Shown piece after piece: positions 19,766 through 58,468 of a stretch of DNA of 64,000 nucleotides. The notes under the pieces were generated by a model that saw only the letters and a program-made list of their open reading frames with translations, was not told the DNA's origin and ran no database searches. The position numbers were made by a program, and so were the translations under genes. The stretch comes from Bongovirus bongo (taxonomy: Duplodnaviria > Heunggongvirae > Uroviricota > Caudoviricetes > Vilmaviridae), in IMG/VR virus record IMGVR_UViG_2595698371_000001; one strand, written 5' to 3'. Position 1 is the first letter of the stretch; each line of letters opens with the position of its first letter.

Positions 19766-19780
19766 GTGATTACAGGAGAG
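19766..19780 (-). promoter_or_regulatory. B-motif copy (CTCTCCTGTAATCAC on the coding strand of the downstream leftward gene)
   Basis: 26 bp upstream of the start of the 19739 gene. Confidence 0.5.
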
Positions 19781-20003
19781 AGTTTTCCGCGATCCAGTAA
19801 CTGTAGTTGGTACCAAATACGTTAGGTAGTACCTAATTTCAGAATGGGTATCTCTTTAGAGAAGGAAGTATCTAATAAAACCCTCAACGTCCCCCAGCAG
19901 GGGGACGTGCCTCACGTACCGTAGGGGGTAAGCGCAACACTCCGTGTTGCTTGTCGGCGCTCACTGCGTTCGCACTGTCCTTTTTAAGACACTAGCGAGG
20001 CCC

Positions 20004-20022
20004 TGACCTGCGATTACAGGAG
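20004..20022 (+). promoter_or_regulatory. composite AB motif TGACCTGCGATTACAGGAG
   Basis: exact consensus copy; followed at 20034..20050 by the A-like CGACCTGCGGTTTTGCAG. Confidence 0.5.
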
Positions 20023-20261
20023 ACCGGGCGCGCGACCTGCGGTTTTGCAGAGCTAGGCAATCGCAGATGAGTGAAACTCTCAGGAAACTCTTAGGGTCGA
20101 ACTGGCGCTTTGTGGGAATACAGAAAGCCGGTACTATCTGCGTGGGCTCGCGAGAGGTTGGTATTCCCTTCCCCCTCAGCGAGCGCGGCACCAGTGGCTC
20201 ACGACTGGTCGAGGTGCCCCTCCCCTGGGGGTCGTGTCCCAGGGGAGCCTCCCCCAGTCTT

Positions 20262-20276
20262 CTCCTGTAATCACCC
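20262..20276 (+). promoter_or_regulatory. B-motif copy CTCCTGTAATCACCC
   Basis: 25 bp upstream of the GTG at 20302. Confidence 0.5.
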
Positions 20277-20301
20277 AGAACCTCTTGCCACACTGTGTGG
20301 C

Positions 20302-20652
20302 GTGAAGAACGAGTTCGGGCAGGACATCACCATCGGTTCCGTTGTGGGACTTGGTATCCGATCCGGTAATGGCAGCGAGCAACGCGTCGGCATCGTGCTG
20401 GAGCTGTTCGAGTCGACGCCGCGCTACGGCAAGCACGAGTGGAAAGCCAAGTGCGCCTGGTTGATGCCACGCCACAAGTACGACCGTGAGCGCGGCACCT
20501 GGGTCGACAAGATCATGATCTCCACCCAGAAGTTCCGCTTCTTCCTCCTGGACGAAGCCAGCCTGGACCCGCAGATCCTCCAGCAGCTGGACGACGCCTA
20601 CACCACCTACATGCTCGACACGAAGCAGGCCAGTGAGTTCATCCCGAGCTGA
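20302..20652 (+). CDS. hypothetical protein
   Basis: GTG start 25 bp downstream of the CTCCTGTAATCACC motif; upstream part of ORF-track ORF 20110.. is judged non-coding. Confidence 0.45.
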   Translation: MKNEFGQDITIGSVVGLGIRSGNGSEQRVGIVLELFESTPRYGKHEWKAKCAWLMPRHKYDRERGTWVDKIMISTQKFRFFLLDEASLDPQILQQLDDAYTTYMLDTKQASEFIPS

Positions 20653-20896
20653 CCTCCTCACCGACCGCAATCGCATGCTGGAGATGCTGTGGGAGATGGA
20701 CAACGAGCTGAGAGCTTGGCATGCGAGTGGCGTGTGGAAGAGTTCGGTCGACGCCGACCAAACCGCTGCTATCTACAAGAAGATGGACGAGCGCCACATA
20801 CTTGCACAGGGGTTGAGGGAGATTGGGTGTGTCCCATGGGATTTCCACCCCCACCGCGACAATAGCTGGCTAGTCGGGCTCCGAAACATGGCCTGA
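20633..20896 (+). CDS. hypothetical protein
   Basis: 87-aa ORF; alternative ATG start at 20666. Confidence 0.4.
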   Translation: MSSSRADLLTDRNRMLEMLWEMDNELRAWHASGVWKSSVDADQTAAIYKKMDERHILAQGLREIGCVPWDFHPHRDNSWLVGLRNMA

Positions 20897-20913
20897 CCTG
20901 CGATTACAGAACC
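20894..20913 (+). promoter_or_regulatory. composite AB motif TGACCTGCGATTACAGAACC
   Basis: immediately upstream of the extended -10 TGATACAAC and the ATG at 20933. Confidence 0.5.
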
Positions 20914-20932
20914 GTTGTACCTTGATACAACG

Positions 20933-21259
20933 ATGGGTACAAACAAGCTCAAGCGTTTCGCACGCAAGCACAATGCGGTCCTGACCGACGATCCGGACGG
21001 ACTGCTCTCAACCCTGCAGATCACCAAACGCCTTGTAGCCGAGGCGAACAAGGACGGGCAGCCTCTCTCTGTGGCCTCTGCCCTTGATCAGGCGCTCGAT
21101 ATGTCAGCGCCCAAGGATCCCGTTCGGACCTGGTGGTCTGCCCTCCGCGTCATCGTGCGAAACAACGAGCCAGGCAAGTCGAACCTGGCCGTTCTCGCCG
21201 ATGCCATTAGCAACCAGGGCACTGTCAATGCCCGCATCAAGAAGGCGGTCGCCGCGTGA
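20933..21259 (+). CDS. hypothetical protein, possibly on a leaderless mRNA
   Basis: ATG 4 nt after the extended -10 TGATACAAC; alternative ATG at 20915. Confidence 0.45.
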   Translation: MGTNKLKRFARKHNAVLTDDPDGLLSTLQITKRLVAEANKDGQPLSVASALDQALDMSAPKDPVRTWWSALRVIVRNNEPGKSNLAVLADAISNQGTVNARIKKAVAA

Positions 21260-21429
21260 GCGGAATCTCGACGCTGCTCGTGGCAGCGTTCATCATCCTC
21301 AAGCTCGTCGGCGTCGACCCCATCGCCATGTGGTCGTGGTGGGCAGTGTTCTCGCCGTGGCTGATTGAGCTGGGTCTCGCCATCATCTTCGGTGTCATCT
21401 ACGGCATCGTCACCGTCATCACCGACTGA
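21256..21429 (+). CDS. small membrane protein
   Basis: GTGA overlap; 57 aa; two hydrophobic helices. Confidence 0.4.
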   Translation: MSGISTLLVAAFIILKLVGVDPIAMWSWWAVFSPWLIELGLAIIFGVIYGIVTVITD

Positions 21430-25794: not shown

Positions 25795-26012
25795 TCATCT
25801 ACTTCGCGCACGCTAAGAGCGAGTCGGGTGACGACTACTACTTCGTCGGTAAGTCCGAGGCCGAGGTCAACATGCAGATCCTCGACATGGCGCGGATGGT
25901 GTGGGGTGACGACAATCCCGAGTTCGTGCCGGATCCGGAGTACGGCATCCACACCTACGACGACTGGCTGATGGATGGCTTCGGCGTTCACATGGAGAAG
26001 TTCGAGCTGTGA
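25791..26012 (+). CDS. hypothetical protein
   Basis: GTGA overlap; 73 aa. Confidence 0.45.
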   Translation: MIIYFAHAKSESGDDYYFVGKSEAEVNMQILDMARMVWGDDNPEFVPDPEYGIHTYDDWLMDGFGVHMEKFEL

Positions 26013-26239
26013 CGCTAAAGTGGTTGCGGCCGTGGATGTATCGCGGCAAGCATCGCGGGACGTTCCCGTACCACTGCCCCGATGACGTGTGCGTCCGGAT
26101 CAAGTTCTGGCTCCACGGTTCACACGTGGTGATGGGTCGCGGCGTGAGCCACCGACCGGGAGCAGCGGCCTGGCGGCGCAGCTACGAGGCTTTGCTGCGG
26201 ACTGATCCGAATGCGCCTTGGTGCCTCTACCGTGAATGA
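26009..26239 (+). CDS. hypothetical protein
   Basis: GTGA overlap; 76 aa. Confidence 0.4.
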   Translation: MTLKWLRPWMYRGKHRGTFPYHCPDDVCVRIKFWLHGSHVVMGRGVSHRPGAAAWRRSYEALLRTDPNAPWCLYRE

Positions 26240-26630
26240 AAAACAATGCAGGGCAGAAGTTCTCGAGCGATGCGGAGGGTTGTGTGAGCGGTGCGGACGC
26301 GGTGGGCCAGTCACCATGCACCACCGGAAGAAGCGCGGCCAAGGCGGGCCCTGGGAACCCTGGAACATCGTCGCGCTATGCGGCCATGGAACAACTGGCT
26401 GCCACGGCTGGGTTGAAGCTAACCCCCTGGCAGCTCACGCTACTGGTTGGCATGTCCGACCCTGGGAAGACCCGCGCAGTGTGCGCCCCACCCCAATATG
26501 GGAGACGGGGCTTCGAGACGGACCTGATGATCCTGGACGAGCTTCTGACCAGCAGAAACGCTTCCTGTATTCACCCTCCGAGCCACCTTATTCTGAGTAC
26601 GTCGAGCCGGAAGATTGGTTCGACATCTGA
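26211..26630 (+). CDS. HNH endonuclease
   Basis: CERCG...HHRKKRGQGG...N..ALC..CH HNH core. Confidence 0.65.
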   Translation: MRLGASTVNEKQCRAEVLERCGGLCERCGRGGPVTMHHRKKRGQGGPWEPWNIVALCGHGTTGCHGWVEANPLAAHATGWHVRPWEDPRSVRPTPIWETGLRDGPDDPGRASDQQKRFLYSPSEPPYSEYVEPEDWFDI

Positions 26631-26650
26631 CCCCGAATGAAACGAGAGAC

Positions 26651-27097
26651 ATGGCCCTGACACTTCCTGTCGTCACCATCGAAGGCACCCTGACGGCCGA
26701 CCCGACCCTGAACTTCACGCAGGGTGGCACTGCGGTGTCGAACATCACCATCGCGTGCAACACTCGCCGCAAGAACCCGCAGACCGATCAGTGGGAAGAC
26801 GGCGACACCACGTTCATGCGTGGCACCATCTGGAAGCAGTTGGCGGAGAACGTCTCTGATTCCCTCCGCAAGGGTGACCGTGTCCTCGCGCACGGCGTCC
26901 TGAAGCAGAAGGACTACGAGAAGGACGGCGTCAAGCGCACCGCCTACGAGCTGGACATCGAGGGCATCGGCCCGTCGCTGCGGTTCGCAACGGCGTCGGT
27001 GACCAAGAGTTCCGGTGGCTCCGGTGGAGGGGCCCGCCAGCAGCCCAAGGAAGATCCGTGGGGCGGCAGCTCCGATGACTGGGGCGGCGACTTCTGA
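26651..27097 (+). CDS. ssb: single-stranded DNA-binding protein
   Basis: OB-fold N-terminus; Gly-rich tail ending in the acidic tip DDWGGDF. Confidence 0.8.
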   Translation: MALTLPVVTIEGTLTADPTLNFTQGGTAVSNITIACNTRRKNPQTDQWEDGDTTFMRGTIWKQLAENVSDSLRKGDRVLAHGVLKQKDYEKDGVKRTAYELDIEGIGPSLRFATASVTKSSGGSGGGARQQPKEDPWGGSSDDWGGDF

Positions 27098-27177
27098 TCT
27101 AGCTGGTGTGAAGGGCCGGTGCCGACCTGAGAACGGCACCGGCCCTTTGTGTCTCATGATCACGACGAGGAGGAGCC

Positions 27178-27735
27178 ATGGCACGACTTACTGCTGCGCA
27201 GTTGCGCAAGAAACACCAGGACACCTTCGAGAAGTTCTGGGCGGCGTACCCGCGCCACACGCACATCACCGAAGCCCAAAAGGCGTGGGCCGACCTCATG
27301 GAGGAGGGCCGCGACGCCAACCAGATCGTCAGCGCTGCAAGGCGTTACGCCGCCAGCGTGGCCAACACGGACATGAAGTACGTGCCAGGTCCCCACAACT
27401 GGCTGCGGGCAGGCCAATACGACGACGCGGACCTGTTCCAGGACGAGCGTCAGGCCCAGATCAACTGGCTCAAGCAGATGTGGAAGACCGCCAACGTCAA
27501 GGCCGTTGAAGACCGGTTCCACGTCACGATGCCGAAGAAGTACCCGCCCGAGGACATAACCGAACCGGACGCCGTGGCGTTCTGGTACCGGACTCAGGCG
27601 CAAGCATGGATCTTCGAGATGTACAAGGAGAAGTACGAGAAGTGCCCGACGGCAACCAGCCAGCCTACGACGAGCGAGCCGAGCAGTCCGTCCTTGGAGC
27701 CATCCTCCACAACCCAGATGTCTTTGGCGATCTGA
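27178..27735 (+). CDS. hypothetical protein (possible replication accessory); 3' end uncertain, may overlap the helicase start
   Basis: GAGGAGG SD; 185-aa ORF. Confidence 0.4.
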   Translation: MARLTAAQLRKKHQDTFEKFWAAYPRHTHITEAQKAWADLMEEGRDANQIVSAARRYAASVANTDMKYVPGPHNWLRAGQYDDADLFQDERQAQINWLKQMWKTANVKAVEDRFHVTMPKKYPPEDITEPDAVAFWYRTQAQAWIFEMYKEKYEKCPTATSQPTTSEPSSPSLEPSSTTQMSLAI

Positions 27736-28928
27736 AGAAGCTGAAGGCCGAGCACTTCTTCCTCCCGGCCCATGAGGTCATCTTTGCGACCCTGAGCCAG
27801 ATGTACGTCGATGACCAGAAGATCGACTCGATCACGGTCTTCGCGAAGCTGTCTGAGAACCAGGATCTTCGCCGGGTCGGCGGGGCCCCTTACCTGGCAG
27901 ATCTGTTGCAGGCGTTCAAGTCTGCGCAGAACGTCAGCGCCTACGCTGACATCGTCATCGACAAGTGGCGGATCCGGCAGATCAACTCGCTGGGGCAGCG
28001 GTTCCAGACCATCTCGGCCAGCACCAACGACGTTGACTCCGCACTCGACGCGGCCCGCCGCTTCCTGGACGAGGTCGATGAGCAGCAGGACATGGATGCG
28101 GTCAACTTCCGCGACCTGTTCCAGATCTGGACCGAGGCCCAAGAGGACGACCGACCGGCCATCGAGACGCCGTTCATCGGTCTCAATGACCGTCTGGCAG
28201 GCGGATTCCACCGTCAGCGCCTCTACGTCATCGGTGCCCGTCCTGGCTGCGGTAAGACGATCCTGGGGGCCCAGTGCGCCCTGTACGCCGCGCAGATGCA
28301 CCACAAGGCGCTGATCTTCTCCCTGGAGCTGTCCAAGGAGGATCTGATGGGCCGCATCCTGGCGTGTGGTGCCCGTGCCGACTATGGGCAGATCACCGCG
28401 AAGCGCATGTCGACGGAGACGCTGGCGAAGGTGACGCGGTGGGCGAGTGCCGCCGCGAACCTGACTCTCGAGGTGGACGACCGGCCGGATCACACCATCG
28501 AGTCCATCGCGCAGGCGTGCCGGATCAAGAAGCAGCGCGAGGGTCTGGACTTCGTCTTCATCGACTACCTGCAGTTGGTGGAGCAGTCGAAGGGGCAGAA
28601 CCGTGTGGAGGCGGTTGACCACATGGCGGCGCGTGCCCGTCAGATCGCCCGAAAGCTGGACTGCGTGGTGGTCGTGGCCGCGCAGCTCAACCGCAAGATC
28701 GAGGACAACGGTGGCAAGCCGCGCCTGCCGACCAAGTCCGATTTCCGTGAGTCCGGTGGCATCGAGCAGACCGCTGATGCCGCACTCGTCCTGTCACGAC
28801 CGGTGGACGAGAACGGGGAGGAGGCCGACAAGATGCCCATGATGAACTTGACGCTTGTCAAGAACCGCACTGGCGTGGAGGGAACCATGCAGCTGCGGGA
28901 GCGTTTCGACATGGCGATGTTCCAGTGA
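27606..28928 (+). CDS. dnaB: DnaB-like replicative helicase
   Basis: 440 aa; N-terminal ERAEQSVLGAIL; Walker A GARPGCGKT; RecA-like core. Confidence 0.85.
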   Translation: MDLRDVQGEVREVPDGNQPAYDERAEQSVLGAILHNPDVFGDLKKLKAEHFFLPAHEVIFATLSQMYVDDQKIDSITVFAKLSENQDLRRVGGAPYLADLLQAFKSAQNVSAYADIVIDKWRIRQINSLGQRFQTISASTNDVDSALDAARRFLDEVDEQQDMDAVNFRDLFQIWTEAQEDDRPAIETPFIGLNDRLAGGFHRQRLYVIGARPGCGKTILGAQCALYAAQMHHKALIFSLELSKEDLMGRILACGARADYGQITAKRMSTETLAKVTRWASAAANLTLEVDDRPDHTIESIAQACRIKKQREGLDFVFIDYLQLVEQSKGQNRVEAVDHMAARARQIARKLDCVVVVAAQLNRKIEDNGGKPRLPTKSDFRESGGIEQTADAALVLSRPVDENGEEADKMPMMNLTLVKNRTGVEGTMQLRERFDMAMFQ

Positions 28929-29269
28929 GCAAGCTGTGGCATCGAGCAGACGAATGGACCAATCACGCCCCTTGCGTGGGGAAGATCGACTTCATCATCG
29001 ACCCCGACACACTGGGGCCGGATCGCACCGAGGTCGTCAAGGCCACCTGCGCGGCCTGTCCCGTGCGCCCCGAATGCATCGAGACGAACACGAAGCCCGT
29101 CTCGGACTTCTGGAGGAAGGCGCTGCGGCCTTCGAACGGTATATGGGTCGCAGGGGAGTGGCTTCCGGAGCGTCAGAAGGTGTCGGAGGCGGTGCTGGAG
29201 ACGACGCGGCAGATGCTGCTGGCCCGCCTTCCGGAGGAGCGCCGCAACCGGCCGGACCACATCCTGTGA
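28925..29269 (+). CDS. whiB: WhiB-family transcription factor
   Basis: four-Cys cluster C..C..C..C followed by the G(V/I)WGG-like segment. Confidence 0.75.
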   Translation: MSKLWHRADEWTNHAPCVGKIDFIIDPDTLGPDRTEVVKATCAACPVRPECIETNTKPVSDFWRKALRPSNGIWVAGEWLPERQKVSEAVLETTRQMLLARLPEERRNRPDHIL

Positions 29270-29455
29270 CCGACACAACAGTCCCAGATTTGGGAATTAG
29301 GTAGTGCGCGTGGTAAATGGCCTCATATTTGCCCCTTCTGCAACGAGGCTTGTCGGTACCCGTCGGTACAGTCCTGACTCGCTGGTGACGGCCCGCCGCT
29401 ACCCAATGTGACCCCAGATGTAAACCTCCTCCCAGTCGGGAGCTGACCGAGAAAG

Positions 29456-29884
29456 TTGCTAAAAGTGGGCCGAAGCCGCAAGTCCGCAAAGGCGGCTGGC
29501 GCATCGTTCGAGCGCCTGATCGCAGATGGGCTACGAGATGCATTGGGTGACAAGAATATTCAGCGTGCTCCGCGCTGGGGAAGCGTCGACAAGGGCGACA
29601 TCATCAACGTCCGCATCGACGGTCAAGATTTGGTTATACAGACTAAAGACGTTACTCGTTTGGACCTTCCCAAGGGTGTCGGAGACGCTAAACTTCAAGC
29701 CGTGAATGCAGGGGCCCTCGCAGGCCTGTTCATCCATAAGCGCAAGGGAACCACTGACCCGATGAAGCAATGGGTTAGCTGTACCGTTGCGGAGCTAGTT
29801 GCACTGATCACCAAGGTTCCGGTACACGCCGGGGCTGTGGAAGGGAATGAAGGGAGGGCGGATGACCGCCACTCTGGAGAATGA
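29456..29884 (+). CDS. Hjc-like PD-(D/E)XK Holliday-junction resolvase (putative)
   Basis: GASFERLIADGLRD...GDIINVRIDGQDLVIQTKD matches Hjc motifs G.aFEREL and PDvvA..EvK; preceded by a low-GC promoter-like region. Confidence 0.45.
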   Translation: MLKVGRSRKSAKAAGASFERLIADGLRDALGDKNIQRAPRWGSVDKGDIINVRIDGQDLVIQTKDVTRLDLPKGVGDAKLQAVNAGALAGLFIHKRKGTTDPMKQWVSCTVAELVALITKVPVHAGAVEGNEGRADDRHSGE

Positions 29885-30488
29885 CACCGACTTCGACTGG
29901 CGCACCCGTTCGGTGTGCGAGGCAGAAGACTTCGACATGACATTCGTGGATGTGGACGACCTGATCGAGCAGGGCGTCGAGCGTGACATGGCCAAGGACA
30001 TCATCAAGCAGCACGATGATGCCGCCAAGGCTGTGTGTGATCGCTGCCCCGTCGTCGCCCAGTGCCTGAACCAGGCCATGGAGGACAACGAGGAGTACGG
30101 CGTGTGGGGCGGCAAGAACCCCGCCGAACGCAACCGCGAGCGTCACATCTGGCTGCAGATCCGTGGCATCCCGTCGCTGCCCGCCGATCTCGGTGAGGTC
30201 AAGGATCCCGATGCTCTCAGCTCAAACGCTGCGGCCAATGCGAAGTTGACCCGCCGCAACGAGCGGGCCCGCATCGCGCGGGATCTGCTGCTGATGCAGC
30301 CCGCCGACTGGACCAACACCACGCGGTCCTCCGGTACCCACACCCGCGAGCAGTACCTGGCGGTGATGGACATGATCCTGGCGAACCCGGCCTCGACGGC
30401 TGAGGTGATCGCGAACCGGATCGGTCGCCGGGGTGAGTACATCAACTCGATGCTCCGCGAGGTCTGCAAGGCCCTCGAGGTCAACTAG
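29862..30488 (+). CDS. second WhiB-like protein
   Basis: Cys cluster C..C..C..C plus GVWGG; AAGGGAGGG SD before the second ATG. Confidence 0.6.
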   Translation: MTATLENDTDFDWRTRSVCEAEDFDMTFVDVDDLIEQGVERDMAKDIIKQHDDAAKAVCDRCPVVAQCLNQAMEDNEEYGVWGGKNPAERNRERHIWLQIRGIPSLPADLGEVKDPDALSSNAAANAKLTRRNERARIARDLLLMQPADWTNTTRSSGTHTREQYLAVMDMILANPASTAEVIANRIGRRGEYINSMLREVCKALEVN

Positions 30489-30687
30489 CTCTGCCACCAA
30501 AGGGCGGGATGTAGGTCTTCGGATCTGCCTCCCGCCCTTGGTGTTTCATCGCCACGGACGTATGTGCGTTTGTATTGATACAATGAGGTTGCCAGGAGTT
30601 GAGCCTCGCTCCTCCGGTACCCCCGTGGATGATTCTGTGACGCCGTCCGACGCGCCTGCCCACGGGGGTTCTACTTTTTCTAGGCTC

Positions 30688-30718
30688 TGACCTGGGAAAA
30701 GCTTCCTGTAATCACCCC
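30688..30718 (+). promoter_or_regulatory. A-like (TGACCTGGG) plus B motif (CTTCCTGTAATCACCCC)
   Basis: 27 bp upstream of the ATG at 30746. Confidence 0.45.
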
Positions 30719-30745
30719 TTTTGAAGCCGTACCGTATTACTCGGT

Positions 30746-30994
30746 ATGAGCGAACAATGTTGGGGCGGCACCCTTTCAAGCGACGGCCGAATCCAAGTTC
30801 TCGAAAATGAGCTGGCTGAAGCGCGTGCGCGTGCGAACAATGCGGAGCGCAAGCTGGCTGCGGTCATCGACCTGGTGGACCGGTGGATGCGGGACTACGG
30901 GCCCGGTACTCGCACCGAGGAAATTCTTGGGCCGCAGAAAGTTTCGGTTGCATTCGTTCACCGCTCGATCAAGGAGACGGCCAACGATGCGTGA
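30746..30994 (+). CDS. hypothetical coiled-coil protein
   Basis: 82 aa; start 27 bp downstream of the CTTCCTGTAATCACC motif. Confidence 0.45.
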   Translation: MSEQCWGGTLSSDGRIQVLENELAEARARANNAERKLAAVIDLVDRWMRDYGPGTRTEEILGPQKVSVAFVHRSIKETANDA

Positions 30995-31460
30995 TCCCGA
31001 TGTGATCCTCACAAACCGAGACGGCGATGTGTACCTCAAGCGCTGGCACATCATTCCGCGCAACCGGTTCTTCAACATCTACCTGCACCAGTTCCTGTCC
31101 AGCGATGACGACAGGGCCCTGCATGATCACCCGTGGTGGTTCGCCAGCCTGGTGTTGAAGGGCGGCTACTGGGAGCACCGCAAGACCGGCTGGGCGACAT
31201 GGCGTGGCCCTGGATCTTTCGCGATCCGCAGGCCGAAGACCGCTCACCGTGTCGAGTTGGCCACCGAATTGGCCCACGTTGAGACGATCTTCGACTCCCG
31301 CACCCTGAAGCCGGTGCGACGGAAGTACAAGACCGTCGCCAAGCCCGCTTGGACACTGATTTTCACCGGCCCCCGATTCCGCTCCTGGGGATTCCACTGC
31401 CCACAGGGCTGGACCCACTGGAAGCGATTCACCGACCGCAACGGATGTGGAGAACGATGA
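30987..31460 (+). CDS. hypothetical protein
   Basis: ATG/TGA overlap; 157 aa. Confidence 0.45.
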   Translation: MRDPDVILTNRDGDVYLKRWHIIPRNRFFNIYLHQFLSSDDDRALHDHPWWFASLVLKGGYWEHRKTGWATWRGPGSFAIRRPKTAHRVELATELAHVETIFDSRTLKPVRRKYKTVAKPAWTLIFTGPRFRSWGFHCPQGWTHWKRFTDRNGCGER

Positions 31461-31720
31461 GCGACCTGATCAACGTCCAGGACGTGGACGACGCCAGCTT
31501 CCCAGTGGGCACCATTCTGGTGGAGCAGTACCACTACTTGCCGACCACGATGCTGCGAACTCACATGTCGCGCACCCCCGATGGCCGGGTTGAGCCTGGG
31601 CGAGGTGACGTATGGATGGCGATCCATAACGACGCCTCCTTCCAGTGCTACAGCTCCCTCAAAGCATTCGTCCATAGCCAGGGTGGCCATGGACTGTTCC
31701 AGGAGGTTTTCCGCCCGTGA
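31457..31720 (+). CDS. hypothetical protein
   Basis: ATGA overlap; 87 aa. Confidence 0.4.
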   Translation: MSDLINVQDVDDASFPVGTILVEQYHYLPTTMLRTHMSRTPDGRVEPGRGDVWMAIHNDASFQCYSSLKAFVHSQGGHGLFQEVFRP

Positions 31721-31962
31721 CCGAAGATCACGAAACCCACACCAGCGTTGGCGATGAGGTCAAGGACCGAATCAACGAGCAGCTCGACCCCGAGATCACC
31801 GTGGAGACCGCCGAAGAAGCGGCCCGCAAGGACAAGTTCCACCGCAAGCCGAACCGCCAGATGCGCCGAGACATGCTGCGCCTCGTCGGCGAAGTCAAGT
31901 CCAACCGGCCCCGCATCCGCCGCCGCGTCTACCGCGTCCGCAAGTACTACGAGGCCAAGTGA
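31717..31962 (+). CDS. small basic protein (possible nucleic-acid binder)
   Basis: 81 aa; Arg/Lys-rich C-terminus. Confidence 0.4.
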   Translation: MTEDHETHTSVGDEVKDRINEQLDPEITVETAEEAARKDKFHRKPNRQMRRDMLRLVGEVKSNRPRIRRRVYRVRKYYEAK

Positions 31963-32379
31963 TTGTGCCCCAATCACCCTGACAGGCCGGTCAAAAGCCG
32001 GGGGCTCTGTGGCAGCTGCTACGACCGAGAGCTAAAGCGTGAGAATCCCGAGTACGCAGAGCGACAGCGTCAGAATCGGCGCGAGTGGGGCGAGCGACCC
32101 GAATCCCAGCAAAAGATGCGGGACAACGAGGCACGCTACCGACGTAAGTACGGTAGCAGGGCGCACCGCGAATATGGCATCACCCGCGAGGAATACGACG
32201 CCTACATGGCCAAGCCATGTGGAATCTGCGGGGAGCCGTCAAAACATCTGGACCACAACCACACTACCGGCGAGATACGCGGAGGCTTGTGCCACCGATG
32301 CAATCTCGGACTCGGCTATTACGAGGGCTGGTTCCTCGAACATCGTCACGCAGCACTGAAATGGATCGGAGCGGAATGA
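31963..32379 (+). CDS. recombination endonuclease VII-like HNH nuclease
   Basis: C..C zinc knuckles and the LDHNHTTGEIRGGLCHRCN signature of EndoVII. Confidence 0.7.
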   Translation: MCPNHPDRPVKSRGLCGSCYDRELKRENPEYAERQRQNRREWGERPESQQKMRDNEARYRRKYGSRAHREYGITREEYDAYMAKPCGICGEPSKHLDHNHTTGEIRGGLCHRCNLGLGYYEGWFLEHRHAALKWIGAE

Positions 32380-32978
32380 GCACAGGAGAAGTTGTCCACA
32401 CATCAGCCACAGGTGGACAAAAGGCGGGTAACCGTGTGCGGATGAGCCTGGTGCCAGGCCGGGAGCTGCTCGATGTGGCAGAGCTGTACGGCAAGGGTGC
32501 TGAGAAGTATTCGGCGTGGAACTGGGCCAAGGGATATGACTGGTCGCTCTCCTTTGACGCCCTCAACCGCCATCTGTGGGCCTGGTGGGACGGCGAGGAG
32601 TTCGACAACGGCGAGGGCGGCACTGGCCTGGAGCACCTCACAGCGGTCGTGTTCCACGCTCTGGCGCTGATGTACTTCCGCAAGCACTTCCCCGAGCTGG
32701 ATGACCGGCCGAACACAGTGCTGGCTCGCAACGCGGAAGCCGAAAAGCCTGAGATGGCCAACGAAGTCAGCTTCCCACTGAGGATGGAGCGCCTCACCCC
32801 AGAGTGGACCCGCGCGTTCACCTGGTACTGGGCGGGCACACAGTACAAGTGGCTGGACGGCGACAGGGGACCGGGCTGGTACTTCCACAGCGGCAGCCAG
32901 TGGGTCTGGTCCAGTGAGAACTTGGAATCCGGCCAGGGGCTCGGGTCCAACGTGATCTACAGCCGGGTCCGCGACTAA
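32376..32978 (+). CDS. hypothetical protein (possible all-alpha NTP pyrophosphohydrolase-like domain)
   Basis: ATGA overlap; 200 aa; LEHLTAVVFHALALMYF resembles MazG/dNTP-PPase helices. Confidence 0.4.
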   Translation: MSTGEVVHTSATGGQKAGNRVRMSLVPGRELLDVAELYGKGAEKYSAWNWAKGYDWSLSFDALNRHLWAWWDGEEFDNGEGGTGLEHLTAVVFHALALMYFRKHFPELDDRPNTVLARNAEAEKPEMANEVSFPLRMERLTPEWTRAFTWYWAGTQYKWLDGDRGPGWYFHSGSQWVWSSENLESGQGLGSNVIYSRVRD

Positions 32979-32997
32979 CCCTCCTGTAATCACCCTC
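32979..32997 (+). promoter_or_regulatory. B-motif copy CCTCCTGTAATCACCCTC
   Basis: 34 bp upstream of the ATG at 33032. Confidence 0.45.
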
Positions 32998-33031
32998 AGG
33001 AGCCAGATAAGTTGAGAGACATGGAGAACCG

Positions 33032-33832
33032 ATGAGCGCCAAGATTCTGGTACTCGACATCGAGCGACAGAGTGCGCTTGTCGACGGCGTGTGGGAAGGC
33101 AAGCAGTACAGCACCTGGGTTGATCCGTCACGCGTGATCGAACCAGCCCGCACCATCTGCTTCGCCTACCGGTGGCTGCACGAGGACAAGACCAAGTTCG
33201 TCGCCGAATGGGACGGCGGTCTGCCGCAGGACAACACGGCCCACACACCGGGCGGTGGCCACAAGCGGATGGTCGAGAAGGCCCGCGAACTCTTCGATGA
33301 GGCCGACTACATCGTCGGCTTCAACTCGAAGAACTTCGACGTGAAGTACCTGCGCGCCGACATGTGGCTCTACGACCTCTCCCAGCCCGCGCCTCACGTC
33401 GACATCGACCTGATGCAGCAGGCCACCAAGAACTTCAAGCTCTACGCCAAGTCCATGAAGTACCTCGCCAAGGCGAAGGCCATGGAAGGCAAGGAGCAGA
33501 CCGAACTGGGCCTGTGGCGCAAGCTGCGGTTCGCAGACGGCGACGTTCTGCGTCGGGCCCAGCGGGCAATGAAGAAGTACAACATTCGCGACGTGGACCA
33601 GACGCTGGAGCTGTTCTACGACATGCGGGGATGGCTGTCGGGCATGAACCTCGCCCTCTACGAGGACGACATCGGCCCGTTCTGCCCGAACTGCGCAAGC
33701 GCCAACCTGCAGTACCGGGGTTGGGCCGGTAACCGGACCTACAAGTACCGCCGCTTCCAGTGCACCGACTGCGGCAAGTGGGGCCGGGACGCCAAGTCGT
33801 TCGCGTCCGTCCAATCCATCGGCATTCCATAG
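33032..33832 (+). CDS. RNase H-like / DnaQ-like 3'-5' exonuclease
   Basis: N-terminal ILVLDIE (Exo I motif); C-terminal C..C...C..C zinc ribbon; 266 aa. Confidence 0.5.
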   Translation: MSAKILVLDIERQSALVDGVWEGKQYSTWVDPSRVIEPARTICFAYRWLHEDKTKFVAEWDGGLPQDNTAHTPGGGHKRMVEKARELFDEADYIVGFNSKNFDVKYLRADMWLYDLSQPAPHVDIDLMQQATKNFKLYAKSMKYLAKAKAMEGKEQTELGLWRKLRFADGDVLRRAQRAMKKYNIRDVDQTLELFYDMRGWLSGMNLALYEDDIGPFCPNCASANLQYRGWAGNRTYKYRRFQCTDCGKWGRDAKSFASVQSIGIP

Positions 33833-33840
33833 GAGAACCA

Positions 33841-34101
33841 ATGTCCCTGAACACCAGCGTCTTTGACGACGTACACATCAGCCTCGCCCAAGGCGAGCAG
33901 GTAGGCACGCTGGACTGGACGTTCCGCAACGTCCCCGCGAACCTGAACCCGCAGTTCTTCGAGTTCATCGGCAGCGATGACGGTGCGAAGATCCTCGCCA
34001 ACGTCGCGGCCCTCTTCCTGTTCGAGCAGGGCGTCCTCAGCGCCGACGACTACATGGCAGTGGTCCAGGACGTTCCGGCGCGAGACATGGAGACCGAGTG
34101 A
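33841..34101 (+). CDS. hypothetical protein
   Basis: GGAGAACC SD; 87 aa. Confidence 0.45.
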   Translation: MSLNTSVFDDVHISLAQGEQVGTLDWTFRNVPANLNPQFFEFIGSDDGAKILANVAALFLFEQGVLSADDYMAVVQDVPARDMETE

Positions 34102-34313
34102 GCCTTCGCGCCGAGGACATCCCGCTGATCAAGATACTTGAGGACGCGCTGGTGGCCGAACTGGACCGCCAGCACCTCAACGGCGAGATCGAGCCGGATT
34201 CCACAGGCTCCGAACACTTCGACGCTGTCGACGGCGAACTCGCGGGCCGACCGGACTGGTTCAAGGTCGCACGTGCTGTCGCAGAGGCCCTTTGGGCCGA
34301 GGAGGGACGGTAG
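34098..34313 (+). CDS. hypothetical protein
   Basis: GTGA overlap; 71 aa. Confidence 0.4.
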   Translation: MSLRAEDIPLIKILEDALVAELDRQHLNGEIEPDSTGSEHFDAVDGELAGRPDWFKVARAVAEALWAEEGR

Positions 34314-34380
34314 TGGCTATCGTCGCCACCGGCATCCTCATCTTCTTCTTCTTCCTCGCAATCATCATTCAGGAGTGGTA

Positions 34381-36689: not shown

Positions 36690-36716
36690 GCCGCCTACTC
36701 CAGGTGAGGAACCCAA

Positions 36717-43562: not shown

Positions 43563-43563
43563 C

Positions 43564-43583: not shown

Positions 43584-43617
43584 TGGGAAACTGTATGCCC
43601 AATGCCTTGTACCAAAG

Positions 43618-44473: not shown

Positions 44474-44479
44474 CGTTGA

Positions 44480-44516
44480 CCCTCAACAGGTTTCGACCTG
44501 TTGGGGGTCTTTTTTA
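44480..44516 (+). terminator. rho-independent terminator closing the tRNA array
   Basis: GACCCTCAACAGGT-ttcg-ACCTGTTGGGGGTC followed by TTTTTT. Confidence 0.8.
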
Positions 44517-44530: not shown

Positions 44531-44551
44531 CTGACCTGCGATTACAGAACC
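44531..44551 (+). promoter_or_regulatory. composite AB motif CTGACCTGCGATTACAGAACC
   Basis: between the array terminator and rtcB. Confidence 0.5.
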
Positions 44552-44647
44552 GGGCCATACTTCTTGCCGTGAGTGTGATTGCCCTCCTGATCAGCCTCCT
44601 GCTGTTCGGCCTGGCGCTCCTAATCCTCTGTCACTGAAGGGATTCCA

Positions 44648-47640: not shown

Positions 47641-48041
47641 CCGTCACGAACGTCATTGCGCCCGAGTTGAATCCGCGTCGTCTGACGATCATGGGTGACC
47701 GCCAGTCAGGCAAGACGCACCACCTGTTGGACATCGCGGTAGACAACGCGGAGCGTGGTAAGGCTGTGTTGTTTGACTGCGCAACAGTTCCGCTGATGGC
47801 CAACACCTATGACCGCTGCGTCCGTGAGCATGCTCGGTTCGGATGGCCCGAGAGCACGGTCGTGAAGTGTCTCGACGGTCTGCGCGAGATCTACTTCGAG
47901 TCGGGCGGCAAGATCGTCTTCAACGCCGGTACTGCCTACGTGAAGCGGTACACCGGCCTGGTGGATGTCCATCTGATCGATGACACCGATGTCGATGCCC
48001 GTGCCGGTGCGGAGCTGGTCATCCGCGCCGTGAAGCGCTGA
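47637..48041 (+). CDS. P-loop NTPase
   Basis: Walker A GDRQSGKT; GTGA overlap start; the stop codon is embedded in the TGACCTGCG motif. Confidence 0.5.
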   Translation: MTVTNVIAPELNPRRLTIMGDRQSGKTHHLLDIAVDNAERGKAVLFDCATVPLMANTYDRCVREHARFGWPESTVVKCLDGLREIYFESGGKIVFNAGTAYVKRYTGLVDVHLIDDTDVDARAGAELVIRAVKR

Positions 48042-48058
48042 CCTGCGATTACAGAACG
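48037..48058 (+). promoter_or_regulatory. composite AB motif GCTGACCTGCGATTACAGAACG
   Basis: overlaps the stop codon of the 47637 gene; 17 bp upstream of the ATG at 48075. Confidence 0.5.
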
Positions 48059-48074
48059 ATGGGAAGCTTCCGCC

Positions 48075-54308: not shown

Positions 54309-54344
54309 TGTTCCCTTCTCGTGTATGTGACGTGAATGTAGGCG

Positions 54345-54368
54345 TCTCCTGTAATCGCAGGTCAGCCC
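54345..54368 (-). promoter_or_regulatory. composite AB motif (minus strand: GGGCTGACCTGCGATTACAGGAGA)
   Basis: about 35 bp upstream of the leftward gene start at 54308; orientation follows transcription. Confidence 0.5.
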
Positions 54369-56090: not shown

Positions 56091-56173
56091 TCTGTTGTTC
56101 CCTTCTCTCGTGTATCGCTCTGAATTGAGCAGGGGTGCAACGGATCCTGCGACCCGTTGTACCCCCTCCCGAT

Positions 56174-56365
56174 TCAGCGCATTCTACTCACACATTCCGG
56201 TGGGTAGCCCATGCGTTTGAACTCTGCCCGAGCGGCCTCGAGGACAACTGTCTTGATGTCGTCCCGTGCCGACCGGGGCCCTGCCAGGTTGTAGCTGTCT
56301 GCGTACTCCCACAGGTCGATGTCGACAGCCAGGTTGACCACCGTCCTGTCACTGGCGGGACTCAC
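56174..56365 (-). CDS. hypothetical protein (64 aa)
   Basis: GTG after GAGGAGGAGGG; the upstream part of ORF-track ORF 56174..56515 is in a non-coding Arg-rich frame. Confidence 0.35.
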   Translation of the reverse strand: MSPASDRTVVNLAVDIDLWEYADSYNLAGPRSARDDIKTVVLEAARAEFKRMGYPPECVSRMR

Positions 56366-56418
56366 CCCTCCTCCTCGGGGCGTACGTCGCACTTGGCGCA
56401 CTTCCGGTCGTATGCCAT

Positions 56419-56530
56419 CAGACGAACGCCCCCAACTCGTAGTCGAACGTGGTGCCGTACGAAGGGCAGTCCTCCGAATGGTCACCGTGGTACCCGCACT
56501 GATTGCAGGTGTCATCCGTATACCTAGCCA
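56419..56530 (-). CDS. tiny Cys-rich protein (37 aa)
   Basis: CxxC...C; TGATG coupling to the downstream mini-ORF. Confidence 0.3.
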
Positions 56531-56683
56531 TGTCTCTTCCCTTCTCGTGTTGTGGCGGTGCTGAGCACACCAAAGGGGGCACCAGCCGAAGCTGATGCCC
56601 CCGAGTCGCGCTCAGAACTTAGAGCTGTTTGAACAAGAGGATGGTGGTCGCCAGCACTGCTGCGACCGACCAATACACTGCCG

Positions 56684-57033
56684 TCATACCGCCCTCCTCC
56701 GTTCCCATTCTGTCCGTGCCCACTGTGCCGGGGTCCACCGGTTGCGCATGATGGCTGCTGCCATGCGCTGCAACTGATGTGGGTTCGCATAGTACTCGTG
56801 CGAGTCGAGCGCATCAGCGATGCCCTCGTGGTAGCCACGGTTGTGGTCGACCACGTCGAACCCGGTCTCGTCTTCAAGGAACTGCAGGCCCTCCCAGCCT
56901 GCAGGCCAGAGGATTGCGGTCTCCCAGAGGTCGAACGATCCGCCCATGTACACGGTGGACACCTGGACCACGCCGACTCCATCGATGATGAAGCCCTGCA
57001 TGATCTGTCGCTGCGGCCTGAACATGGTGCTCA
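56684..57033 (-). CDS. hypothetical protein
   Basis: ATGA overlap with the 57030..57192 gene; 116 aa. Confidence 0.4.
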
Positions 57034-57192
57034 TCGGTTCACCGCCCATGCTGCAGGCAGGAACCCGCCTGCGGACAGCCAGCCATCGAGACCGTCGACC
57101 ACGACCACCAGCTCGCCGAGCGGCACCTGCCCACCACCCAGGTGGGCCTCGACCATCTCGCGAATGAGCTTGAGTGCCTCGTCTGGATCCAT
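57030..57192 (-). CDS. small hypothetical protein (54 aa)
   Basis: conserved leader GAGAAGGGAAGAGACACA before the ATG. Confidence 0.35.
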
Positions 57193-57288
57193 TGTGTCTC
57201 TTCCCTTCTCGTGTGGGTGTCCGTCTGGCCACCAAGGAAAGGCACCACAGGTTGCCCTGTGATGCCCTCCCCAAGCTGCCAGCCAGCT

Positions 57289-58363
57289 CTACGCCGGGAT
57301 GAGTTCCGGCATGTCGAGCACCTTGGCCAGGGCCCCCAGCGTGGCCCCATCGCTCGCCGCGATGTCGCCACGGATGGCCCGGTCGTAGACCCGCTCCAGG
57401 CGCGACGTACCGCGCACGGAGCGACCGTGATGCTCGTAGGTGTTGACCGCCTGCACGACACCAAAAGCGGTGCCCGCGAACGGTGCTGACATGGGATCCA
57501 CCGTGTAGTAGTGGTCGAGCGCCTCGCGGCGGTTCTCAGCCTTGGTGATCTTGGCCTTGCTGCTGTCCGCAGGGGCAGGGGGCTCGATGATGTCGAGCAC
57601 CTTCAGCCACTCCTTGCGGGTGACCTCGATCTGGGCCAGCTCGCGAGTGAAGTCCTGCATCTCATGCGCGGACTTGTCCAGGATGGACAGTGCCTCACGG
57701 ACACCGGCCACCACCTGGGCACTCATGCTGTTCACGGTGTGCTTGACCTTGTACTGACGGCCCGACTTGCGGGCATCCGCACGGATCCCTTGGAACATGT
57801 TGTCGCAGATCAGCATCCGGTTGAATGCCGAGTACGTGGTCGCGATGGACCCGTCCAAGGAGGTCTGCGCGAGGAGGAACGGCCAGAACTCGAGGCCGGT
57901 CTTCTCGTCGTGCATGGTCTCGTCCAGGCCGATCTCGACAGCCGCCTGTGCGCCGTTCTTCAGCGTCAGTGCGGACAGGATCGAGAGACGGTCCTGCAGG
58001 ATGTTGCTCACGTTCCGGATCAGCCACTCCTTGTAGTCGTGGATCCGGTAGGACTTGGTGTGCCGTCCCAGCTCCGTGCAGTCATCGGAGCGCACAATTC
58101 CCTGTGCGCCCTCGGTGATGACCACCTTGGCCGGTCGCCCGTCGGGCAGGACGATCACCCCCGGCTCGCCGAGCTGGTCGACACCGACCGGGATGAAGTT
58201 GCCTGTGGGCACGCTGAGCGCCTCCCAGTTGAACAGGCGGCGCTCCACCTCACCCACGGGGATGGGGCCCTCGTAGGTCGGCAGGGTGCCGTCCGTTTGG
58301 CCAATCCACCGGTCGCGCTTGGCGGTGTTGCCGATCAGTGCGTGAGCGATTTTGCTTCCCATA
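57289..58363 (-). CDS. hypothetical protein (358 aa), largest gene of the right-arm block
   Basis: ATG after GAAGAAGGGAAGAGAACT; the N-terminal extension of ORF-track ORF 57289..58539 is non-coding leader. Confidence 0.5.
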
Positions 58364-58427
58364 GTTCTCTTCCCTTCTTCGTGTGTTACCCGTTTGTGTA
58401 ACGGGCATCTGTACCGTCTGAGTACAG

Positions 58428-58468
58428 CAGAGCGCACAGGGTGATTACAGGAGACCAACCTGTGCGCT
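58428..58468 (-). promoter_or_regulatory. B-motif copy displayed in the loop of a 9-bp perfect hairpin (GCGCACAGG-GTGATTACAGGAGACCAA-CCTGTGCGC)
   Basis: between the stop at 58478 and the leader of the 58363 gene. Confidence 0.45.

Follow-up and report, generated by a model that had tools for sequence, protein, structure and literature searches.

The window analysed here, a stretch of 64,000 nucleotides, corresponds at 100% identity to bases 16956-80955 of Mycobacterium phage PegLeg (cluster M1) and contains a dispersed motif that occurs either as a composite of two parts, A and B, or as B alone. All copies listed in the initial annotation exist, within 1-3 bp of the positions it gave, and the motif lies well above expectation: the 11-mer has 9 matches in the window against 0.60 expected, and the composite, at up to 3 mismatches, has 6, with none in 100 shuffles. 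The complete PegLeg genome (80,955 bp), scanned with a PWM at a reporting threshold of 12 bits, yielded exactly 6 class I (composite) and 8 class II (B-only) sites, all above 21 bits; no further site scored between 12 and 21 bits, so the families have no weaker members. The earlier list held the B-only cores at 19768(+), 20262(-), 30703(-), 32981(-), 37412(-) and 58443(+) and lacked two copies: a seventh at 26562-26576 (CTGTATTC, one mismatch) and an eighth at PegLeg 3969-3983, beyond the window. Written in the direction of transcription, class I reads cTGACCTGCGATTACAG and class II reads CTCCTGTAATCACC, which holds the class I core inverted. The B half does occur alone, but its orientation relative to transcription is opposite to that in the composite, rather than being the same arrangement.

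Of the class I sites, five have a -10 hexamer in the direction of the composite. At 20893-20923 (+; composite 20894-20912), the box cTGACCTGCGATTACAG is followed by the -10 hexamer TACCTT (20918-20923) and the gp52 ATG at 20933, and its TGA (20894-20896) is the stop codon of gp51. Similarly, at 48038-48068 (+; composite 48039-48057; -10 GAAGCT, 48063-48068) the TGA of the box (48039-48041) is the gp124 stop codon; two composites therefore overlap a stop codon, not one as previously counted. The gp125 ATG (48075) falls 7 nt past this -10, so that a leaderless mRNA is predicted. The box at 43562-43592 (+; composite 43563-43581; -10 GAAACT, 43587-43592) overlaps the 3' end of tRNA-Gly (TCCACCTGCGATTACAG), with tRNA-Val downstream, and is present in PegLeg only among the three genomes scanned. 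At 44531-44561 (+; composite 44532-44550; -10 CATACT, 44556-44561), a strong terminator (44478-44509) ends 22 bp before the box, and a GTG at 44569 starts an unannotated 22-codon hydrophobic ORF ahead of the rtcB start at 44648; in Rey and Nanosmite, gp131 and gp121 respectively have their annotated starts at index 39, like this GTG. The minus-strand site at 54335-54365 (composite 54346-54364; -10 TACATT, 54340-54335) precedes gp138 (start 54307), whose predicted mRNA leader contains the right-arm RBS repeat ACACGAGAAGGGAA. RNA structure of class I sites was not significant (z = -1.4, 0.0 and +0.6).

The remaining composite, at 20003-20023 (+; composite 20004-20022), lies centrally in the 562-bp divergent gp49/gp50 control region and lacks a rightward -10, that is, one in its own direction. 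Read leftward, CTGTAATC (index 1 at 20019) is followed by TAGTGT at 19994-19989, a hexamer shared by Rey and replaced by TAGCCT in Nanosmite, and the Rey counterpart has flanks of class II type. This composite is thus a putative leftward promoter.

Two class II sites lie in the same control region. On the left, the box CTCCTGTAATCAC (19746-19779, -; index 1 at 19775) with -10 GAAGCT (19751-19746) precedes the gp49 ATG at 19739 (index 37) and is the predicted promoter, giving a leaderless mRNA, of the leftward gp49-gp40 operon. On the right, the site at 20261-20294 (+; index 1 at 20265; -10 CACACT, 20289-20294) precedes the gp50 GTG at 20302 (index 38) and would serve as promoter of the rightward early/recombination operon. 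The one-mismatch box CTGTATTCACC (26561-26594, +; index 1 at 26565; -10 TATTCT, 26589-26594) falls within the 3' end of gp65, the SSB gene gp66 (start 26651) being 86 bp downstream, and Rey and Nanosmite have exactly this box and -10. The site at 30702-30735 (+; index 1 at 30706; -10 TACCGT, 30730-30735) is followed by the gp72 ATG at 30746 and preceded, 16 bp upstream of the box, by an A-like CTGACCTGGG at 30687. That at 32980-33013 (+; index 1 at 32984; -10 TAAGTT, 33008-33013) precedes DnaQ (gp78; ATG 33032), with GGAG in a short predicted leader of about 11 nt, and its box is the exact point where similarity to subcluster M2 phages starts. At 37411-37444 (+; index 1 at 37415; -10 TAATCT, 37439-37444), immediately behind a terminator with a 20-bp stem (37362-37407), lies the predicted promoter at the tRNA/tmRNA array entrance.

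The copy at 58421-58454 (-; index 1 at 58450; core 58443) is an atypical member. Its hexamer, TGTACT, lacks the A of position 2 and belongs to the 3' arm of a stem. The copy does sit in a hairpin loop, as first described, and the hairpin is long and conserved, but the stem is a perfect 12 bp rather than 9 bp and belongs to a larger structure (-41.6 kcal/mol, z = -4.5). By eye, the hairpin arms of PegLeg and Rey differ in sequence and each is self-complementary. A poor -10 and a place in a hairpin loop speak against a promoter role for this copy.

Counting NANNNT at all offsets outside the box in PegLeg, Rey and Nanosmite gave one sharp peak per class: index 26 for class I (5/5 in PegLeg, 13/13 across the three phages) and index 25 for class II (7/8 and 20/24, respectively). 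The hexamer begins 8 bp past GATTACAG in composites and 16 bp past CTGTAATC in B-only sites, a spacing that does not shift by a single base pair over 8 + 5 promoters and three subclusters. In the hexamer, positions 2 (A) and 6 (T) are fixed and the others vary; the leading T of TANNNT is missing in about half of the sites of the three phages (all but 2 of 13 in class I; 7 of 24 in class II), and inspection of the column counts by eye showed no extended -10. Annotated starts of gp11, gp49, gp50, gp72, gp125, gp52, Rey gp131 and Nanosmite gp121 fall at index 37-41. Because the start codon usually follows the -10 by about 7 nt, the mRNAs are predicted to be leaderless or to have short leaders. 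Both strands of about 40 kb lack a canonical TTGACA-16/18-TATAAT promoter, where three scans expected 0.5, 3.7 and 4.6, and of the plus-strand terminators the two strongest immediately precede the 37412 and 44532 boxes. Against a promoter reading counts the 19 bp from cTGACC to the -10, which is long for SigA. The initial annotation had found no -35/-10 fit; this is correct for the two motif halves taken as -35 and -10, but the -10-like hexamer lies further downstream, with the motif in the -35/spacer region.

Fixed -10 geometry, proximity to start codons, absence of canonical promoters and upstream terminators together argue for promoter boxes rather than stoperators, SAS elements or Shine-Dalgarno sequences. 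From the geometry we infer that the motif is probably the upstream box of two architecturally distinct phage promoter classes. In class I, the A part (cTGACC) would take the place of the -35 hexamer at about -37 to -32, and the common core GATTACAG(G/A) would occupy the spacer at about -28 to -18, ahead of the weak -10. In class II, the inverted core (CTCCTGTAATCACC) would span -39 to -26 and substitute for the -35 element, with the -10 starting 27 bp past the box's first base. The predicted transcription start lies about 7 nt past the -10, at the start codon or 1-11 nt before it in most genes.

The boxes are retained at orthologous positions in Rey and Nanosmite despite diverged flanks. Rey has GATTACAGGA and Nanosmite GATTACAGGGA as the core variant, neither of which keeps the terminal GGAG; thus, the box is not a Shine-Dalgarno element. 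In prophiGD54-2, a MabI relative from M. abscessus, GATTACAG is not enriched. Instead, the orthologous promoters bear a different 14-mer, CACCCACATGAACC, at the left arm, gp56, gp57, SSB, after WhiB, DnaQ, the tRNA array and RtcB, in both orientations. The distance from box to -10 is again 27 bp at five indexed sites and 28 at the SSB site; that at gp57 is not clear. An unrelated 14-mer at matching distance in orthologous promoters points to a phage-encoded reader. Furthermore, the asymmetric core is used both ways and replaced in MabI; hence the reader is most likely a phage-encoded, sequence-specific protein that would cooperate with host SigA RNA polymerase and not be a sigma factor itself. 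Activation or recruitment is our tentative choice for the direction of control; repression via an immunity factor is also possible, and dual action on the two classes lies on the unlikely side.

The box could equally be the operator of a repressor, PegLeg being temperate, with a serine integrase. In its pure form, this explanation has about 14 SigA promoters silenced in the lysogen by a cluster M immunity repressor, with no promoter contribution from the box. A protein bound over the -35/spacer region would occlude RNA polymerase, and the box functions in either orientation and is lineage-specific, as operators and immunity specificities, respectively, can be. Mycobacterial promoters, moreover, frequently dispense with a -35 element. 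However, -10 spacing that is invariant to the base pair is more typical of a polymerase-positioning element, and weak -10 hexamers, about half without the leading T, with no extended -10 evident, make unaided promoter activity doubtful. The cluster M and MabI records examined carry no annotated repressor gene. We regard a purely operator function as unlikely.

Strictly fixed spacing is equally compatible with direct sigma-like recognition. Lineage-specific boxes and the absence of a canonical -35 would also suit core promoter elements read by an alternative sigma, of host origin or a sigma-like phage protein, with no separate factor. Inversion of the core and its 8-bp displacement between classes are, however, difficult to square with a single contact by sigma region 4, and the -10 still shows the A (position 2) and T (position 6) typical of SigA. 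The cluster M records examined list no sigma factor, and a Pfam scan limited to ten candidate regulators gave 0 matches to any sigma family. Recognition by a sigma alone is accordingly improbable.

Stoperator-like roadblocks or SAS-like translation signals, to which the initial annotation had likened sites that are indeed dispersed, oriented, intergenic and regulatory, and which their asymmetry, fixed orientation per class and the AGGAG ending of the PegLeg core could suggest, are already contradicted by site geometry and are highly improbable: there are just 14 sites, each tied to a -10 hexamer, in two core orientations relative to transcription, with the class II AGGAG on the non-transcribed strand, the class I AGGAG 17-20 nt from the start codon, GGAG unconserved in Rey and Nanosmite, class I RNA without significant structure, and the real RBS-linked repeats of PegLeg being different sequences in the right arm.

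The promoter boxes can be set beside known systems. Cluster A stoperators (L5/Bxb1 repressor sites), of which L5-like phages have 24 or more, are likewise short, asymmetric, dispersed between genes, oriented to transcription, lineage-specific and found in temperate actinophages. They have one orientation, are mostly not promoter-associated and act as repressor-dependent stops, unlike the PegLeg boxes with their fixed -10 distance and unrelated sequence. In T4, middle promoters combine a MotA box with sigma appropriation by AsiA, and the MotA box is read by a phage protein acting through sigma region 4. There too the -35 gives way to a box specific to the phage, set at a constant distance from a -10 of host type, although proteins, host and sequence are unrelated, orientation is single in T4, and the PegLeg side is predicted. 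An SAS contains the ribosome-binding site and works at the level of translation. Stoperators measure 13-14 bp, and 14 are reported in prophiT49-3 (PMC9934374). Cluster K SAS/ESAS (PMC3203893) are also conserved mycobacteriophage repeats just before many start codons, but PegLeg genes at the boxes are mostly leaderless by prediction, with the box in the -35/spacer region; its SAS-like elements are the right-arm repeats ACACGAGAAGGGAA and CACACACGGAGAAGGGA.

A candidate for the reader of the promoter boxes is gp71 (29862-30488, +), with a WhiB domain at residues 13-91 and a C-terminal module of a long helix and HTH at residues 123-204. Its best non-WhiB fold matches are to WhiA, a similarity that would presumably cover the C-terminal module. 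At WhiA/WhiB promoters of Streptomyces and Mycobacterium, a WhiB-type protein sits on SigA region 4 and beside it the WhiA C-terminal HTH reads a short asymmetric near--35 motif on either strand (PMC10243135). gp71 appears to resemble this system in one chain, whereas WhiA and WhiB are separate proteins with variable GACAC-to--35 spacing (PMC10243135); PegLeg has fixed spacing and a different motif. Co-variation of gp71 and box spans two lineages, and any phage-encoded protein would give an equal pattern. gp71 lies downstream of class II promoters and so is not strictly required for all of them. We favour gp71 over other proteins, yet its link to the box is doubtful.

The cluster M repeats are said to suggest novel regulatory systems in transcription and translation. 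Pope et al. (2014, J Virol 88:2461; reference 15 in PMC7953290) had described them as CR1-CR4, with PegLeg among the three founding genomes. Our unbiased 11-mer census of PegLeg gave four repeat families with extended (13-21 bp) blocks and a fifth, shorter recurrent 11-mer, ACGGAGGAGGG (x4). Two families in the rightmost region match CR3/CR4 as described in PMC7953290, and the remaining two are classes I and II, which by elimination are very probably CR1 and CR2, in either order. The motif was thus already known, and the present finding is a rediscovery; the MabI prophage comparison and the gp71 fold analysis draw on data newer than the 2014 paper. As initially proposed, the motif is most likely the site of a phage-encoded factor that would serve early/replication genes, the tRNA array, rtcB and the right arm.

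Over a 4-kb stretch around the motif sites, identity to Mycobacterium phage PegLeg (an 80,955-bp genome of cluster M1) was 100%. Identities here were 97–100% for Bongo and approximately 14 other M1 phages, and 77–82% for more distant relatives. Two joined pieces of KC900379.1 reproduced the window exactly, as PegLeg bases 16956-80955. The motif span takes in four regions: the control region between the divergent gp49 and gp50, the early/replication operon that runs rightward, the tRNA array with rtcB and the genes after it, and the leftward right arm. ARAGORN called a 96-nt tRNA-Arg(ccg) within the lysin B gene (window 15399-15494, plus strand), which is probably a false positive, and did not return three features annotated in the PegLeg record, namely the tmRNA (window 37719-38121), a second tRNA-Asn and a tRNA-Ile.

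Every motif copy listed in the initial annotation was re-found, with coordinates right to within 1–3 bp, and abundance above composition-matched expectation was borne out. The 11-mer GATTACAGGAG (at most one mismatch) has nine copies in the window versus 0.60 expected, and the 19-mer composite (at most three mismatches) gave six matches versus 0 expected. Alignment of all copies resolved two classes of site. Class I, the composite of an A half (the cTGACC part) and a B half, reads cTGACCTGCGATTACAG(G/A)A(G/C) on the transcribed strand and is found at 20004, 20894, 43563, 44532, 48039 and, on the minus strand, 54364. Class II reads (C/T)TCCTGTAATCACC(C/T) on the transcribed strand, with its core inverted relative to class I. 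It includes the sites for gp49, gp50, gp72, DnaQ, the tRNA array and gp149, a previously overlooked copy with one mismatch upstream of the SSB gene (26562-26576), and an eighth copy that lies beyond the window in the PegLeg genome, upstream of gp11. A whole-genome PWM scan with a reporting threshold of 12 bits returned exactly 14 sites, scoring 21.6–44.4 bits, and no others. The site family is closed, without a degenerate tail. Among viral contigs, the 14-mer ACCTGCGATTACAG gave mostly single matches, apparently due to chance, besides two contigs.

Sites were indexed from a fixed base of the box, per class, and the A at position 2 and T at position 6 of TANNNT, the mycobacterial −10 signature, were tallied at each offset. 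Each class displayed one sharp −10 peak outside the box. The class I peak fell at index 26, shared by 5/5 non-central PegLeg sites and by 13/13 over PegLeg and the compared cluster M phages Rey and Nanosmite. The class II peak fell at index 25, with seven of eight sites in PegLeg and 20 of 24 over the three phages. The leading T of TANNNT was found at 2 of 13 class I sites and was absent from 7 of 24 class II sites. The remaining four hexamer positions differ among promoters and phages, as illustrated by TAAGTT/TACGTT for DnaQ, GAAGCT/GAGGGT/GAGGCT for gp125 and TAATCT for the tRNA array. A fixed A and T with other positions variable is what one would expect of a functional −10, not of an extended repeat.

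Annotated starts lie at index 37–38 for gp11, gp49, gp50 and gp125, at index 39 for Rey gp131 and Nanosmite gp121, and at index 41 for gp72 and gp52. DnaQ has an 11-nt leader with GGAG, and gp138 a longer leader with the right-arm RBS repeat. Start codons at index 37–41 are consistent with predicted transcripts that start 6–8 nt past the −10. With a start site roughly 7 nt past the −10, the majority of these mRNAs would have little or no leader, and leaderless mRNAs are a common type in mycobacteria. Of the plus-strand terminators, the two strongest lie just before boxes, one ending 5 bp upstream of that at 37412 and the other 22 bp upstream of that at 44532, and several Rey and Nanosmite boxes have, by eye, a G+C-rich stretch followed by a T-run just 5'. 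Furthermore, three boxes reside within two divergent control regions, where operons must start.

Canonical sigma-70 promoters numbered 0 on either strand of the approximately 40 kb scanned, with shuffles giving 0.5, 3.7 and 4.6 in three scans. TTGACA-16/18-TATAAT had 0 matches on both strands of window 19600-21100 and 26000-63999, versus about 4 per 20 kb in composition-matched shuffles. PegLeg seems to avoid standard promoters. The predicted −10 hexamers likewise have no TTGACA-like −35 at 16–18 bp; cTGACC is 19 bp away in class I, and CTGTAA/TGTAAT occupies this place in class II. We conclude from these sequence patterns that the motif is the −35/spacer part of approximately 14 predicted phage promoters. 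An earlier dismissal of any −35/−10 reading was correct in that the two motif halves are not a −35/−10 pair, but it overlooked the −10 further downstream that appears as fixed-offset peaks. With +1 taken 7 nt after the −10, the class I cTGACC would lie at approximately −37 to −32, −35-like and 19 bp from the −10, and the core GATTACAG at −28 to −21. In class II, the 14-mer CTCCTGTAATCACC would lie at −39 to −26. Because the core occurs in both orientations, with centres approximately 8 bp apart, a separate DNA-binding protein is favored over direct reading by a single sigma region 4.

A serious rival reading is that the box acts in repression. The annotations of PegLeg, Rey, Nanosmite, prophiGD54-2 and Izel (2025 record) list no repressor, Cro, sigma or HTH protein, and Pfam analysis of ten candidate regulators near control regions recovered two WhiB-type proteins only and no classical HTH repressor. 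The initial annotation viewed the motif as a regulatory site for a probable phage factor, which our data support; its stoperator-like nature did not survive, as a promoter box fits instead. Stoperators of the cluster A type are 13–14-bp asymmetric sites for the phage immunity repressor, with many copies in one orientation that are mostly promoter-free. The PegLeg box has 14 sites with the core in two orientations, and all but one or two are at a fixed distance from a −10. Being few in copy, bidirectional and promoter-bound, the box is not a stoperator. Neither is it a cluster K SAS, an element that holds the RBS directly 5' of the start codon on the mRNA, because it is not RBS-linked: the class II core is on the non-transcribed strand, and the AGGAG of class I, 17–20 nt from the start codon, is unconserved in Rey and Nanosmite. 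Orientation, distance and non-conservation also ruled out AGGAG as a Shine-Dalgarno sequence; the terminal GGAG of the PegLeg core is GGA in Rey and GGGA in Nanosmite, and in class II it is on the non-transcribed strand. A MerR-type arrangement, with a dyad in an overlong spacer, was rejected for class I as the dyad is off-centre in the spacer, and an RNA-structure role of the composite was rejected as class I RNA has no significant structure (z = −1.4, 0.0 and +0.6).

Two sites depart from the common architecture. The central composite at 20004 is without a rightward −10 and has a leftward TAGTGT at the class II distance plus 1. Rey keeps this hexamer and has class II flanks around the site, and Nanosmite has TAGCCT instead. 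Aligned among PegLeg, Rey and Nanosmite, the 562-bp divergent region has a mean column identity of 81%, against BLAST identities of 77% and lower in the 4 kb around it. A putative small RNA of about 105 nt that is absent from the annotation (window ~19870-19985, minus strand) would begin at the central-box leftward promoter, with its −10 TAGTGT at 19994-19989, and terminate at a conserved G+C hairpin (19887-19908) that precedes UUUUAUU. An Rfam search of the divergent control region gave one chance-level hit only. The second atypical copy, at 58443, occupies a hairpin loop; the hairpin is strong (−41.6 kcal/mol, z −4.5), and its stem includes the "−10" of this copy, TGTACT. By eye, the hairpin arms differ in sequence between PegLeg and Rey, with each self-complementary. 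The annotated start of gp149, a DUF932 protein, is at 58458, inside this conserved box-bearing hairpin (58400-58480, minus strand). Because the Nanosmite orthologue is annotated to start approximately 80 nt further downstream, the PegLeg and Rey gp149 starts are probably too long. A separate annotation matter concerns an unannotated 22-codon hydrophobic ORF, VSVIALLISLLLFGLALLILCH (window 44569-44637, plus strand), which opens where transcription from the class I promoter 5' of rtcB is predicted to start; in Rey and Nanosmite, the position equivalent to the start of this ORF is the annotated start of gp131 and gp121, respectively (about 145 codons).

The A half is also found on its own. TGACCTGC has 13 copies in the window versus 3.8 expected, five of which are within class I sites. 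Six copies of TGACCTGC(A/G) are clustered in the last 1.2 kb, at the non-coding right genome end (window 62830-63907). This array, also present in Rey, Nanosmite and Izel, contains the near-palindrome CTGACCTGGGGTTTTAGGTAAAAGCGCAGGTCAA (62901-62934). Lone A-half copies lie at 20031-20046 and 30687-30696, and the A-only copy TGACCTGCGG of the central control region is kept even in MabI, a related group of M. abscessus prophages. Since A occurs apart from the core, the composite is a fusion of two separable elements. Possible roles of the lone A half are binding of a second DNA-binding protein, or attP, origin or packaging sites. A reading of the lone A half as a promoter with the class architecture was rejected, as inspection by hand revealed that right-end and central A-only copies are mostly without a −10 at index 26–31.

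Comparison with relatives revealed both conservation and replacement of the box. Two Reyvirus phages, Rey and Nanosmite, which are considerably more distant from PegLeg than the M1 phages are, carry both classes at orthologous promoters with spacing unchanged. Between PegLeg and subcluster M2 phages, BLAST similarity 5' of DnaQ starts exactly at the box. MabI prophages are organized like cluster M (PMC9934374), and the M. abscessus prophage prophiGD54-2 has the genome organization of PegLeg. GATTACAG is not enriched in prophiGD54-2, with two matches versus 0.96 expected. This genome instead carries a different repeat, CACCCACATGAACC, with at least 10 copies at two or fewer mismatches, a count reached by no shuffle. 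At least 11 copies of this MabI box, apparently unannotated in the records, were located over prophiGD54-2 (MW584202.1, 30000-79047) and L126 (8820-8833). CACCCACATGAACC resides at orthologous places: in the left-arm operon, at gp56 and gp57, 5' of both the SSB gene and DnaQ, past the large WhiB gene, at the tRNA array and ahead of rtcB. In copies of one orientation, TANNNT/NANNNT begins 27 bp after the first box base in five of seven indexed, which is the cluster M class II spacing; of the other two, the SSB site has its hexamer at 28 bp and the gp57 hexamer is ambiguous. An ATG is usually about 7 nt past the hexamer. The MabI tRNA array has an inverted box whose end is 5 bp from TAGACT, like cluster M class I, and at gp78 the nearest TANNNT begins 11 bp past an inverted box. 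That a sister lineage has an unrelated box at equivalent positions suggests a reader that is encoded by the phage and specific to the lineage.

Repeats of cluster M have been described before. One account (PMC7953290) attributes conserved repeats CR1–CR4 of cluster M genomes, in similar numbers and locations, to Pope et al. 2014, and describes CR3 and CR4 as preceded by stem-loops and as separating many of the genes in the rightmost region. An unbiased census of all 11-mers present at least four times in PegLeg yielded four repeat families with extended (13–21 bp) blocks: class I, class II and two right-arm families, ACACGAGAAGGGAA and CACACACGGAGAAGGGA. The remainder consisted of T-loops of tRNAs, coding-bias words of a single 11-mer each, and a shorter 11-mer, ACGGAGGAGGG, present four times. 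On the minus strand, which is transcribed here, ACACGAGAAGGGAA followed by cacATG has four copies (54311-54324, 56537-56550, 57201-57214 and 58893-58906) and CACACACGGAGAAGGGA has five (59379-59395, 60008-60023, 60366-60382, 60695-60711 and 60999-61015). Both carry an RBS and precede start codons of small leftward genes, and they are probably the published CR3 and CR4. Classes I and II belong to a cluster M genome, have conserved sites across Rey and Nanosmite, and are separate from the two right-arm families. Because the latter fit CR3 and CR4, classes I and II are, by elimination, very probably identical to CR1 and CR2. The motif itself would then be already known and its detection a rediscovery, the conserved repeats of cluster M being familiar to specialists. 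A full-text literature search for the motif string and for CR1–CR3 descriptions found, among the papers searched, no phage paper that prints the sequence, and PMC9934374 and PMC4351075 contain nothing on the repeats described here.

A candidate reader of the box is the larger of the two WhiB-type proteins, gp71 (29862..30488, plus strand), a 208-residue protein with a WhiB domain at residues 13–91 and a C-terminal extension of approximately 115 residues. The domain is a WhiB-like Fe-S domain of the type that binds SigA region 4. An exhaustive search with the extension recovered only 13 proteins at an E-value of 0.001 or lower among 1.8 billion representatives. Twelve of these are about 190–215 residues long and match at their own C-terminus, thus the gp71 architecture is shared. 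An AlphaFold model based on a 17-sequence alignment was usable (a 5-sequence version was poor), with a mean pLDDT of 78 and block means of 77–95 for residues 121–208, which are predicted to form a long helix, a beta hairpin and three helices. Foldseek with this model agreed on WhiB and gave weak HTH hits only. The C-terminal module is without a sequence-level match, and Pfam HTH hits of family members are all sub-threshold. In Streptomyces, WhiB binds SigA region 4 and the C-terminal HTH of WhiA, via a "long helix", reads an asymmetric GACAC, which occurs on either strand in a promoter-dependent manner (PMC10243135). Read against this scheme, modeled gp71 resembles a direct fusion of WhiB to a long helix and HTH of WhiA-like type. 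If it reads the box, it would be a one-protein counterpart of WhiA plus WhiB, or of T4 AsiA plus MotA.

The putative recognition helix of gp71 reads RRGEY(I/V)NSMLRE in all three phages with the GATTACAG box, and KSSNFFSQLFSL in prophiGD54-2. The gp71 gene is downstream of class II promoters and could be reached early from the gp52 class I promoter, as no strong terminator was found in 26000-37362, the scanned part of this region. We infer a link between the box and gp71, its specific candidate reader. With low confidence, we propose that the box is the target of gp71, whose WhiB half would engage host SigA region 4 and whose HTH would read the 14-bp box either way, thereby redirecting RNA polymerase to approximately 14 promoters that lack a −35. 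The box (GATTACAG in cluster M, CATGTGGGTG in MabI) and the helix would have diverged jointly between these groups, a co-variation that spans two lineages only. Collectively, the analysis supplies 14 predicted promoters whose geometry is exact to the base pair, a natural swap of the box in a sister lineage, and one candidate protein, gp71. If gp71 is the reader, cluster M phages would possess a compact, phage-encoded takeover of mycobacterial SigA, and the box and gp71 would constitute a portable, orthogonal promoter/factor pair for mycobacterial genetics.
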